Below are positions 18,500 through 56,234 of a stretch of DNA of 64,000 nt, piece by piece. The stretch is from an uncultured Clostridia bacterium (lineage in GTDB: Bacteria; Bacillota; Clostridia; TANB77; CAG-508): the NCBI GenBank assembly GCA_947581825.1, contig CANPVP010000009.1, forward strand, positions 10,366 through 74,365, in the 5' to 3' direction. How positions within the stretch are numbered: position 1 is the first letter of the stretch; each line of letters opens with the position of its first letter. Position numbers and translations under genes: made by a program. Under the pieces are notes generated by a model. That model made no database searches. It was not told the DNA's origin and saw only the letters and a program-made list of their open reading frames with translations.

Positions 18500-18519
18500 C
18501 ATAGCTACAAGATTGAAAC

Positions 18520-18580
18520 AAAACAACATTAGCATGATAAGTAATATAAAAAAATACTTTTAGAATGCTAATGTTGTTTT
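18520..18580. terminator. Bidirectional hairpin between convergent genes
   Basis: AAAACAACATTAGCAT ... ATGCTAATGTTGTTTT (16-bp arms, ~29-nt loop containing AAGTA/TACTT), flanked by A and T runs. Confidence 0.55.
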
Positions 18581-18592
18581 ATTTCATTTTTT

Positions 18593-25808: not shown

Positions 25809-25867
25809 TTTACAAAATCTCCTTATAATCTTATTTTATAGCATTTATACAAATATTTGTCAAATAA

Positions 25868-25900
25868 TATGAATCGGGCGACCACTGGTCGCCCCTACAT
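25868..25900 (+). repeat. GC-rich hairpin repeat, copy 1 (REP-like: stem GGGCGACC/GGTCGCCC followed by CTAC)
   Basis: TATGAATCGGGCGACCACTGGTCGCCCCTACAT, identical over 33 nt to 26109-26141. Confidence 0.85.
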
Positions 25901-25984
25901 ATATGTTATTTTGTTTCATATTTTTTTGCATCATTATAATAATACATTTGTATTGAATTAACATCTCTACTGTTAATATTTTTA

Positions 25985-26060
25985 CGGGTCGTCGGTGCTG
26001 AGGCTGTTAAGGCTTTGCCTGTTACAGCCTCAGTATGCCTGCTGGACGCCGACCCCTACA
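25985..26060 (+). repeat. Extended GC-rich hairpin with the same feet as the REP-like repeats
   Basis: ACGGGTCG...CGACCCCTACA encloses CTGAGGCTGT/ACAGCCTCAG (10 bp) and an apical AGGC-TTT-GCCT. Confidence 0.75.
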
Positions 26061-26108
26061 GAATTGCAATTCATTCACATTGCAGTCCATAATTAATAAT
26101 GCATAATT

Positions 26109-26141
26109 TATGAATCGGGCGACCACTGGTCGCCCCTACAT
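26109..26141 (+). repeat. GC-rich hairpin repeat, copy 2
   Basis: Identical 33-mer to 25868-25900, same orientation, 241 bp downstream. Confidence 0.85.
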
Positions 26142-26167
26142 TTATTCAATATTTTGCAATATTTAAT

Positions 26168-26324
26168 AAAATTTTCTATGTTTTTTCGTAGCGAGCTTGT
26201 GTGGGGACCGACTAGTTAGAAACAGTTAAGAAAATATCGAAGCAATCGCTAGCGAAATTGCAAGAATATTTTCTATACGGTTTCTACTAGTTGGGACGAG
26301 CGAGAAAAAAGCATAGAAAATTTT
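26168..26324. repeat. Foldback element copy 1 (113-nt conserved core 26191-26303 plus copy-specific complementary arms)
   Basis: The core matches the reverse complement of 41446-41558 with 5 mismatches and no gaps (manual alignment). The arms AAAATTTTCTATGTTTTTTC and GAAAAAAGCATAGAAAATTTT are complementary apart from a 1-nt bulge. Confidence 0.85.
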
Positions 26325-26329
26325 AGCAT

Positions 26330-26368
26330 GAAAAAAAGAAAATTAGAAATGCAAATTCTAATTTTCTT
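26330..26368 (-). terminator. Intrinsic terminator of dprA
   Basis: AGAAAATTAGA / TCTAATTTTCT, an 11-bp stem followed on the minus strand by a 7-T run. Confidence 0.7.
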
Positions 26369-26446
26369 TTAATAAAATTCAAGGGGATATTTGTGCTAAT
26401 TCTTATTAGTACATTTTTAATATATTAGTTATACCTTAAAATATTA

Positions 26447-48985: not shown

Positions 48986-48998
48986 ATGTATATAAATA

Positions 48999-49338
48999 AG
49001 TAAATCTGTAAGCCGGGTTCTGTCTAGAATAGCCATTTATCTAGGATATATATTACTATATACCTCAAGCCACCAATTCAAAAAGACGCCGAGCAGACTT
49101 AGCCTTTTTTATTAGGTGTTGCTCCAGATGGGGTTTACATTGTCCCAATATGTCACCATATCAGCGGTAAGCTCTTACCTCACCTTTTCATCCTTACCTA
49201 AAAATTAGGCGGTTATTTTCTGTTGCACTTTCCTTAAGGTTTCCCTCACTGGACGTTATCCAGCATCATTGCTCTATGGAGCCCGGACTTTCCTCTCGTA
49301 CAACCTTGCGGTTTATACCAGCGACTATTCAATTTACT
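48999..49338 (-). ncRNA. rnpB: RNase P RNA, type B (Firmicutes)
   Basis: The minus strand contains GAGGAAAGTCCGGGCTCC, GAAAGTGCAACAGAAA, TGTAAACCCC and ACAGAACCCGGCTTACAG. The P1 pairing AGTAAAT/ATTTACT defines the ends. It is a GC-rich island in AT-rich DNA. Confidence 0.93.
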
Positions 49339-49347
49339 CTAAATTTT

Positions 49348-55234: not shown

Positions 55235-55351
55235 TTTTACCTCTAAACCCTTTAATTAATATGTAAAATTATACTATTATTGCTATGAATTTTCAAGTTA
55301 TATATATGTGAAATTTAATTATAACTATTTCATCTAATCATTGTATAAAAC

Positions 55352-55380
55352 TTGTAAATTTACATTATTTGTGATATAAT
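55352..55380 (+). promoter_or_regulatory. Sigma-A promoter with extended -10 upstream of the GC-rich cassette
   Basis: TTGTAA - 17 nt (ending TGa) - TATAAT. The sequence turns GC-rich about 12 nt downstream. Confidence 0.6.
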
Positions 55381-55467
55381 ATATTTTACATTCGCCGTAT
55401 CCCAAAATGTGGATACACCGCCCAGTGCCTTAAAAAGCACGCGCTTAGAGAAAGGAGCCAGAAGATT

Positions 55468-55743
55468 ATGGCAACGTTTGAATGCAGTGACCTTTTAGTT
55501 CACTTATTGGAAACCTTACCTCCCAGCAAATACTATCTCTTTGACTATCCTGAAGAGGAGAAGGTCGGTATCGTGGATGACCTGTATCACTTGAGTGATG
55601 CAGCCGTCATGATGTACATCACTATTGACTGTGATACAAAAAGTACATTTTTCGATGCCGTCCATGCGGCCTGGGAAAAAATTGAGACTGTCAGAGGTAA
55701 GCCGGTAAAGCACTATGCAGATAGTGCTTTACACACAAGCTAA
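55468..55743 (+). CDS. Orphan 91-aa acidic cytoplasmic protein, compositionally foreign
   Basis: RBS AAAGGAG 10 nt upstream and a strong terminator 7 nt after the stop. Many C/G-ending codons (GTC, GCC, GAC, CAC, CTG, CCG, AAG, GAG), unlike every neighbouring gene. No motif recognised. Confidence 0.7.
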   Translation: MATFECSDLLVHLLETLPPSKYYLFDYPEEEKVGIVDDLYHLSDAAVMMYITIDCDTKSTFFDAVHAAWEKIETVRGKPVKHYADSALHTS

Positions 55744-55749
55744 AAAACG

Positions 55750-55786
55750 AACAGGACCACCCTTCACGGGTAGTCCTGTTTGTTTT
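55750..55786 (+). terminator. GC-rich intrinsic terminator of the orphan gene (probably bidirectional)
   Basis: AACAGGAC-CACCC-ttcac-GGGTA-GTCCTGTT followed by TGTTTT. It abuts the stop of the convergent DUF3592 gene. Confidence 0.8.
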
Positions 55787-56234
55787 ATCTTGAAAAATTA
55801 GTTCCAAAAAAAACTATACTTATAGCTATAGCTCCCACAAGTGAAATGAATAAACCTGACCAATCATTTTTTTCAACATTGTCTGAGGGATCATCAGAAT
55901 TATACATTATTCTAACCTGCTTTCCTAGCTTTGGCTTTCCACTTGAAGCTACTTTTCTTACACATCTATATGTATTACCATCTACTTCAAATTCAATAAT
56001 AGGAGCATATGTAACACTTTCACCATAATAAGTATCATTTGTATTTCCTATCCTTATTGAAGTTCCTGACCCTGTACCATATCTATTATCATCCCTAGAT
56101 ACATGTCTTTCATAATCTACAATTGTTCCAATCGTTTCCCTAAAAGCTGGATTATTTACCTTCATATGATGTATAATTTGTTTTACTATTCCTGTAAAAA
56201 TTACTGCTCCACAAATAATATAAACTAACGTCAT
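55785..56234 (-). CDS. DUF3592-type membrane protein
   Basis: 149 aa. N- and C-terminal TMs flank a beta-rich domain (APIIEFEVDGNTY...GKQVRIMYNSDDP). Confidence 0.65.
   Translation of the reverse strand: MTLVYIICGAVIFTGIVKQIIHHMKVNNPAFRETIGTIVDYERHVSRDDNRYGTGSGTSIRIGNTNDTYYGESVTYAPIIEFEVDGNTYRCVRKVASSGKPKLGKQVRIMYNSDDPSDNVEKNDWSGLFISLVGAIAISIVFFGTNFSR

Follow-up and report, generated by a model that had tools for sequence, protein, structure and literature searches.

The DNA studied here, referred to as the window, is a stretch of 64,000 nucleotides (nt) from an uncultured Clostridia species of the rabbit gut (contig CANPVP010000009.1, positions 10,366 to 74,365). Its overall GC content is 27.0%. 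At positions 55388-55790 the window contains a GC-rich single-gene cassette predicted to encode an acidic orphan protein of 91 amino acids (aa). The adjacent gene for a flavin adenine dinucleotide (FAD)-dependent protein links the host to the metagenome-assembled genome (MAG) Lapin-032__bin6 (L015), whose FAD-dependent protein is 98% identical.

Organization of the cassette

The cassette and its promoter are composed of the following elements:

55352-55380, plus strand: cassette promoter with the -35 box TTGTAA (55352-55357), a 17-nt spacer, the -10 box TATAAT (55375-55380) and TG at 55372-55373; 10 of 12 matches in the consensus scan
55388-55467, plus strand: GC-rich 5′ leader of 80 nt with two small hairpins and the Shine-Dalgarno (SD) sequence AAAGGAG at 55451-55457
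55468-55743, plus strand: coding sequence of the 91-aa acidic orphan (MATFECSDLLVHLLETLPPSKYY...), assigned by the open reading frame (ORF) call, a GC content at third codon positions (GC3) of 0.467 and the substitution pattern
55705-55732, plus strand: perfect 12-base pair (bp) hairpin within the 3′-end of the coding sequence, GTAAAGCACTAT-GCAG-ATAGTGCTTTAC, 100% complementary
55744-55790, both strands: bidirectional intrinsic terminator, a stem-loop with 19-nt arms (55744-55786) and T-runs on both strands; folding z-score -7.2

By consensus, the promoter belongs to the sigma-70 type with an extended -10 region (TGaTATAAT), and the predicted transcription start lies at approximately 55387-55388. 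At 55353-55364, a palindrome of 12 bp without mismatch, TGTAAATTTACA, extends over the -35 box and could be an operator. The SD sequence is located 10 nt before the ATG in the window and 7-10 nt from it across all haplotypes. In the leader, the haplotypes differ by only two to three substitutions and by an indel of 3 nt between SD sequence and ATG. The stop codon directly precedes the terminator. The latter is common to the cassette and to the convergent DUF3592/DUF2238 transcript, and it is retained in the strains L009 and L013 lacking the DUF3592 gene, where it adjoins the stop codon of the DUF2238 gene. The host-like promoter, the leader of about 80 nt, the 276-nt ORF and the terminator described in the initial annotation were thus all recovered.

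Base composition and limits of the GC-rich DNA

With a GC content of 0.444, the region 55388-55790 ranked at the top of all 403-nt sliding windows (mean 0.270, standard deviation 0.034), 5.2 standard deviations above the mean, and the maximum itself was located at 55387-55794. The second GC peak of the window (0.39) corresponds to the gene for RNase P RNA (48993-49340). Within the cassette, the ORF has a GC content of 0.431, the values of the first, second and third codon positions being 0.489, 0.337 and 0.467. The GC3 of the 57 remaining non-overlapping ORFs with 80 aa or more ranged from 0.092 to 0.200, which makes the cassette value about 3.5 times that of the host (0.47 vs. approximately 0.13). 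These data bear out the visibly higher GC content and the preference for codons ending with C or G that had been noticed by eye. The surroundings, estimated at about 25% GC, are indeed poorer in GC, but not uniformly so, since the flanks gave values between 0.20 and 0.31. Furthermore, the mechanical ORF list contains six plus-strand ORFs of at least 80 aa, not the five plus-strand genes that had been counted. No similarity was found between the cassette and either the rest of the window or 94 further loci.

The GC-rich DNA sets in only a few bases from the predicted transcription start and extends as far as the terminator. Such an abrupt change of composition is what would be expected if foreign reads had been fused into an AT-rich contig, and it is the sole argument for an assembly chimera or a contamination. 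We rejected this explanation, whose probability is negligible: the same junctions, with three alleles, recur in a deposited MAG and in 28 or more contigs of one rabbit-gut study that were assembled independently from many samples, and in four sequencing runs the contig depth was level over both the cassette and the flanking DNA.

Coding capacity and natural alleles

Three natural alleles of the ORF were identified, A in the window, B in L001 and C in L015. They differ at 14-24 of the 276 positions and contain neither a stop codon nor a frameshift. Third codon positions made up 17 of the 29 variable sites, and the ratio of non-synonymous to synonymous divergence per site (pN/pS) among the three alleles ranged between 0.12 and 0.24. 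Codons 1-48 showed six synonymous and no non-synonymous changes; the N-terminal half of the protein is invariant, while ten amino acid differences fall into its variable C-terminal third. The ORF alone is weak evidence for coding because 2.9% of shuffles of the 403 nt also gave a complete ORF with 91 aa or more; it is the substitution pattern that provides the evidence. Third-position bias, low pN/pS and an intact frame together characterise a gene that is translated and subject to purifying selection. On this basis we regard the region as a translated gene whose N-terminal half is tightly constrained. An antisense ORF at 55516-55713 (minus strand) was not accepted as a gene; it was regarded as the open antisense frame that commonly accompanies a coding region.

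Searches of the cassette against Rfam at E-values up to 10 yielded only chance matches to the terminator hairpin, the best of which scored 23.8 bits compared to a gathering score of 53.1. When the whole window was scanned, only RNase P RNA and a T-box leader were detected, both outside the cassette. Thus, the Rfam check that had been proposed to exclude a non-coding RNA at 55388-55790 matched no family, and the coding reading stands. Among RNA sequencing runs, none was found to contain the region.

The 91-aa protein and search for relatives

The deduced protein has a mass of 10.4 kDa, an isoelectric point of 4.7, a net charge of -9 and no transmembrane segment. Its amino acid composition is unlike that of the host, as it is devoid of asparagine (host 6.4%) and glutamine (host 2.7%) and contains 5.5% histidine (host 1.2%). 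A word-indexed protein search of 5.8 billion clusters returned only its own cluster and the allele with 89% identity, and a full HMMER scan of 1.84 billion representatives only the query itself. There was no match in Pfam, NCBIfam or PADLOC, and in Pfam none for any of the alleles at E-values up to 10. PHROG gave matches at chance level (E 0.07 or worse). Sequence searches of the PDB with the single sequence and with a profile of the three alleles remained negative, the best hit being a chance match to a haemagglutinin (E 0.85). Neither blastn nor tblastn revealed anything significant among phage and plasmid records, and scans of IMG/VR and JGI metagenomes with the allele profile did not disclose relatives.

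AlphaFold2 predicted a helical model whose mean predicted local distance difference test score (pLDDT) was 53 with one sequence and 51 with two sequences. Foldseek searches of this low-confidence model against PDB and BFVD produced no hit at E ≤0.001, as expected for a poor model. The description of the product as a small acidic orphan without transmembrane segment or recognised family was therefore borne out, and the suggested BLAST-type, profile and structure searches recovered only the query and its alleles. Judged from these searches, the protein is an orphan representing a new family. It is probably soluble, cytosolic, acidic and helical.

An LPxxYY-like motif directed attention to barstar (PF01337). 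The similarity was limited to BLASTP E 1.3 over 17 residues, without a Pfam match at E up to 10 or a match in the PDB, and this candidate was abandoned. A cognate gene for a secreted ribonuclease or toxin does not lie beside the ORF, since the unit is monocistronic and its neighbours encode the DUF3592 and FAD-dependent proteins. Likewise, with regard to type II antitoxins and anti-phage defence, no partner occurs in the unit and neither the ORF nor the DUF3592 gene had a PADLOC match; a role in immunity, as an antitoxin or in anti-defence, as raised initially, is speculative.

Folding of the mRNA

The 403-nt transcript has a minimum free energy of -136.6 kcal/mol compared to -98.8 ± 5.6 kcal/mol for dinucleotide shuffles (z -6.8). 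Without leader and terminator, the ORF still gave a z-score of -4.55 against dinucleotide shuffles and of -4.3 against 500 synonymous-codon permutations in which protein and codon usage were fixed; none of the 500 permutations was as stable. The leader alone was not exceptional (z -1.3). For 47 host segments a mean z-score of -0.6 (standard deviation 1.3) was determined, coding segments never falling below -2.4, and values comparable to those of the cassette were reached only over intergenic hairpin elements. Moreover, folding is better for the sense than for the antisense strand. The mRNA of allele A is thus much more folded than its codon choice requires.

The excess stability depends on the allele, with z-scores of -4.5 for A, -3.4 for B and -1.9 for C. 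The hairpin at 55705-55732 belongs to the unusually stable fold of allele A; in alleles B and C two of its pairs are changed to G-U and two are lost. Out of 121 consensus pairs predicted from four haplotypes, none exhibited a compensatory double change, seven were broken, and one hairpin is lost in allele C. Of the 16-17 allele changes residing in predicted stems, 9-10 retain pairing via G-U. The alternative offered initially, an unusual structural constraint on the RNA, is consequently met by a divided result: allele A is far more stable than its synonymous permutations, but the effect is weaker in B and C and is not accompanied by covariation. Strong folding probably raises the stability of the mRNA, and it may or may not be selected.

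Genomic neighbourhood, distribution and age

On the minus strand, the genes are arranged in the order hybrid histidine kinase, HlyIII, DUF2238, DUF3592 (present or absent), FAD-dependent protein, der, plsY and gpsA, the cassette being inserted on the opposite strand between the DUF3592 gene and the gene of the FAD-dependent protein. Two neighbouring features are the following:

55268-55296, minus strand: divergent promoter of the FAD-dependent protein gene/der operon, TTGAAA-17-TATAAT, 11 of 12 consensus matches
55785-56234, minus strand: gene of a DUF3592 membrane protein (PF12158), the convergent neighbour, of host-like composition, outside the cassette but in the same variable spot

In the relatives L024, L030 and L044, whose FAD-dependent proteins are 65-68% identical, the junction between the DUF2238 and FAD genes measures only 47-108 bp. 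The window has about 555 bp (55235-55790) at this position, which comprise the divergent promoter region and the cassette and which are therefore lineage-specific. In the proposed comparison of synteny at the FAD junction, the cassette thus emerged as a lineage-specific insertion. The divergent promoter is situated within this lineage-specific intergenic DNA. Across the intergenic region of 153 bp (55235-55387) that holds both divergent promoters, alleles A, B and C are 100% identical, whereas the neighbouring genes differ by 1-9%; this identity suggests a strong constraint on the two promoters.

Scanning for flanking direct or inverted repeats yielded only AT-rich chance matches, and the flanks contain no mobility genes. 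The genes called up to about 5 kb away, beyond which the window was not screened for integrases, do not include an integrase. The statement that neither repeats nor an integrase flank the gene thus applies, for the integrase up to this distance. The comparison with morons, on the other hand, could not be upheld. Like prophage morons, the cassette is an autonomous unit of promoter, gene and terminator, deviates in composition and is transcribed against the flanking genes. However, it is not part of a prophage: it is surrounded by der, plsY, gpsA, the FAD-dependent protein gene and membrane protein genes, and shows no match to phages by DNA, protein or predicted fold. Gene cassettes of integrons, which possess attC and an integrase and normally are promoterless, differ in that the cassette has its own promoter and that the one inverted repeat at its 3′ end is a canonical terminator with a T-run behind it.

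Within the species an empty site was not seen. All examined contigs including the species-representative MAG L015 carry the cassette, an apparent fixation that has to be read in the light of the fact that most cassette-bearing contigs were retrieved through the protein itself; in the contigs of four sequencing runs, joints skipping the cassette (empty site or deletion) did not occur either. Between the window and L015, synonymous divergence (pS) amounted to 0.25 for the ORF, 0.22 for gpsA and 0.19 for der. Because the value of the ORF matches those of gpsA and der, the gene is older than the separation of these lineages. All three alleles have a GC3 of 0.47-0.49, with no GC decay visible. In L001, the flanks diverge from the window by a pS of only 0.02-0.05, while the 3′ half of the ORF and the DUF3592 gene are 6-15% divergent. 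This pattern marks an imported recombination tract.

The original proposal of a recent acquisition from a donor with higher GC content can be retained in part. It agrees with the foreign composition, the orphan status and the absence of the cassette at the junction in L024, L030 and L044. Its recency is not supported, the pS of 0.25 being similar to the genome-wide value between lineages, and no donor was found in any collection searched.

The DUF3592 gene showed variation of its own. It is absent in L009, L013 and L015, with T-run microhomology at the junction, and shares only 93.8% identity between the window and L001 (flanks approximately 99%) at a pN/pS of 0.84, indicating a small hypervariable spot.

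Other GC-rich small genes in related species

Sister species with 25-27% GC contain other GC-rich single-gene units equipped with a consensus promoter, an SD sequence, a small ORF and a terminator. One of them was present at three loci:

L031:3780-4130, L042:40-400 and L041:3800-4140: cassette of a 69-70-aa cysteine (Cys)-rich orphan (CxxC...CxxC) with a TTGACA-17-TATTAT promoter, SD sequence and terminator

The GC contents of these copies, which occupy one conserved site, are 0.52 (L031), 0.47 (L042) and 0.37 (L041). At L037:4125-4290 the cassette is deleted and the terminator alone is left. The three Cys-rich proteins are 35-58% identical. Where residues are identical, about 55% of their codons are unlike at the third base, a value close to saturation, yet GC3 remains at 0.36-0.63. 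It follows that GC-richness alone does not mean recent arrival; to judge from these sequences, a high GC content can persist for a long time in small genes of the clade. An excess of mRNA structure was not detected in the Cys-rich genes (z approximately 0), and hence structure is not the general reason for GC-richness in this clade.

Two further cases were encountered in relatives of 26-28% GC. These are a homologous pair of genes for membrane proteins of about 100 aa with GC contents of 0.43-0.46 (L055:11778-12089 and L033:12209-12517, both on the minus strand) and a NUDIX hydrolase gene with a GC content of 0.43 (L029:10493-11059, plus strand).

Origin and possible function of the cassette

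We favour, with somewhat more confidence than doubt, the reading that the cassette is a real monocistronic orphan gene which was acquired horizontally before the lineages diverged, whose product is acidic and probably helical and whose mRNA is unusually folded. The unit, as delimited by consensus signals, consists of a strong sigma-70-type promoter, an 80-nt leader, the SD sequence, an ORF of 91 codons and the bidirectional terminator, embedded in about 555 bp of lineage-specific DNA. It would have been taken over from an unsampled donor of about 43-50% GC, horizontal origin being most likely because the nucleotide, codon and amino acid composition is that of such an organism. The acquisition would have preceded the divergence of the present lineages of the species (pS about 0.2) and would not be recent. 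In line with this reading, the clade takes up or keeps GC-richer genes, as exemplified by the NUDIX gene (L029), the membrane protein genes (L055, L033) and the Cys-rich genes (L031, L041, L042).

Several observations weigh against it. Neither a donor nor a homologue was present in any collection searched, so that transfer is deduced from the composition and from the absence in relatives. The relatives with an empty junction are distant (FAD-dependent protein 65-68% identical), and species at 70-76% are uninformative as they do not share the synteny. When changes were polarised, 8 GC to AT changes faced 12 AT to GC changes, although 61% GC to AT would be expected (p 0.049), which means that there is no drift towards AT; polarisation by majority rule among three alleles gives this amelioration test a low power. 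The absent drift fits selection for GC as well as a relic of transfer. Finally, the model of the protein reached a pLDDT of only 51-53 and the fold searches were empty, and since the unit contains no partner gene, the mode of action discussed below lacks direct support.

If the ORF were spurious, the region could be a gene for a non-coding structured RNA, similar to other GC-rich islands in AT-rich genomes. The RNase P RNA gene, which forms the second GC peak of the window, resembles the cassette in its sharp peak bounded by the transcript ends and in its very negative folding z-score, and finding an ORF as long as this would be no great surprise at 44% GC. Nevertheless, this explanation is highly improbable. 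Unlike the RNase P RNA island, the cassette matches no RNA family and has substitutions of the protein type, with a third-position bias, a pN/pS of 0.12-0.24 and zero non-synonymous versus six synonymous changes in the N-terminal 48 codons; all haplotypes have a good SD sequence at 7-10 nt from the ATG, the stop codon immediately precedes the terminator, and covariation is missing. Less remote, though still unlikely, is a dual-function transcript. Besides coding for the 91-aa protein, it would be under selection as a structured RNA, with a role as a stable regulatory RNA or as an mRNA whose fold controls its own stability or translation, and the GC content would be held by selection at the RNA level. 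The low z-scores of the transcript (-6.8) and of the ORF (-4.55, and -4.3 against synonymous permutations, none of which was as stable), host coding segments that never fall below -2.4, the better folding of the sense strand, the extension of the GC-rich stretch from the predicted start to the terminator, the 9-10 of 16-17 stem changes that still pair via G-U and the lack of drift towards AT would all be accounted for in this way. As in RNAIII/hld, SR1/SR1P and SgrS/SgrT, a short, strongly structured and independently transcribed RNA contains a small ORF. In contrast to these RNAs, however, the cassette has no known target, no known conserved RNA motif and no covariation, and its structural signal depends on the allele, declining from A through B to C. 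None of the 121 pairs is compensated, seven are broken and a hairpin is lost in allele C, an Rfam family was not matched, the leader alone is inconspicuous, and the comparator cassettes of L031, L041 and L042 do not show excess structure.

A native origin, for which we see slightly less reason than for the dual-function transcript, would dispense with transfer altogether. In this case the gene would have arisen within the lineage, either de novo or from local DNA that was remodelled or diverged to an extreme degree, and selection would have produced and kept its GC content. The lack of a homologue in all collections searched is compatible with this, the promoter, SD sequence and terminator are typical of the host, ORFs open easily in GC-rich DNA with its few stop codons (2.9% of the shuffles), the Cys-rich comparator exemplifies a long-lived GC-rich small gene in the clade, and most species-specific orphans of the gut have been argued to be native (PMC11293555). 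On the other side, gut orphans across 4,644 species normally match the GC content of their host, and phage-derived and de novo orphans are poorer in GC than the genome (PMC11293555), whereas the GC3 of the cassette is 3.5 times the host value; the comparator cassettes likewise run counter to this tendency. There is also no evident source of DNA with 44% GC in a genome of 27% GC, as the cassette resembles neither the window nor the 94 loci; the amino acid composition is unlike that of the host, and strong purifying selection already acts on the N-terminal half. Somewhat less probable again is a recurrent class of GC-rich minigenes extending from promoter to terminator and encoding unrelated orphan small proteins, whose GC content would be kept by selection on the transcript, through folding and stability or through escape from RNases preferring A/U. 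Its members would be the genes of the 91-aa acidic protein, the 69-70-aa Cys-rich protein (L031, L041, L042) and the 100-aa membrane protein (L055, L033), the 91-aa cassette representing a gene with dual constraint on RNA and protein.

Returning to the horizontally acquired orphan gene, its product might act by binding and blocking a basic partner, i.e. a protein or a nucleic-acid-binding surface, like small acidic inhibitor, immunity or DNA-mimic proteins. This suggestion, which is drawn by analogy, is a tentative one. Barstar, the immunity proteins of colicins and mimics of the Ocr/ArdA type likewise have about 90 aa and a comparable acidity (charge -9 in the orphan), are cytosolic and possess a variable surface region, and a short local resemblance to barstar (SDL..L...L...YY) exists in the orphan protein, though it is not significant. 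The orphan differs from barstar-type proteins by the lack of significant similarity and of an adjoining toxin or nuclease gene.

Lineage-specific orphans as such are a known kind of gene. Like the species-specific orphan genes (SSOGs) described by Vakirlis and Kupczok (2024; PMC11293555), the 91-aa gene is short, confined to one species, without homologue, under purifying selection and of low structural confidence. SSOGs, however, match the GC content and GC3 of their genomes, whereas the cassette has a GC3 of 0.47 compared to approximately 0.13 and seems to be fixed rather than rare. Unusual here are how far and in which direction the GC content deviates, the excess folding of the mRNA and the hint of a recurrent class of minigenes. 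The cassette thus offers a clean case of a species-restricted orphan under purifying selection whose composition is contrary to the rule of a host-like or lower GC content. Should its GC-richness be a relic of transfer, it would point to an unsampled pool of donors in the rabbit gut. Should it be maintained by selection, which is hinted at by the lack of drift towards AT, the excess folding of the mRNA and the comparator gene that has long stayed GC-rich, then selection at the transcript level would hold a gene about 30 GC3 points above a strongly AT-biased genome.

Further elements of the window

The two RNA families detected by the Rfam scan of the window are both encoded on the minus strand:

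48993-49340, minus strand: RNase P RNA class A, 299.8 bits
38000-38233, minus strand: T-box leader, 110 bits

In 7 of 12 relatives scanned with Rfam, RNase P RNA is located downstream of the FAD-dependent protein gene; in the window der, plsY, gpsA and further genes lie in between. A third GC peak (0.377) was observed in a 640-bp intergenic region at 25809-26446 with a folding z-score of -5.4. This region contains the GC-rich palindromic unit TGTAGGGGCGACCAGTGGTCGCCCGATTCAT twice, together with two longer hairpins. It resembles repeats of the repetitive extragenic palindromic (REP) or miniature inverted-repeat transposable element (MITE) type and matched no Rfam family. The z-score of -4.0 obtained for another intergenic region is due to a long AT-rich bidirectional terminator hairpin at 18514-18586 (GAAATAAAACAACATTAGCAT...ATGCTAATGTTGTTTTGTTTC).

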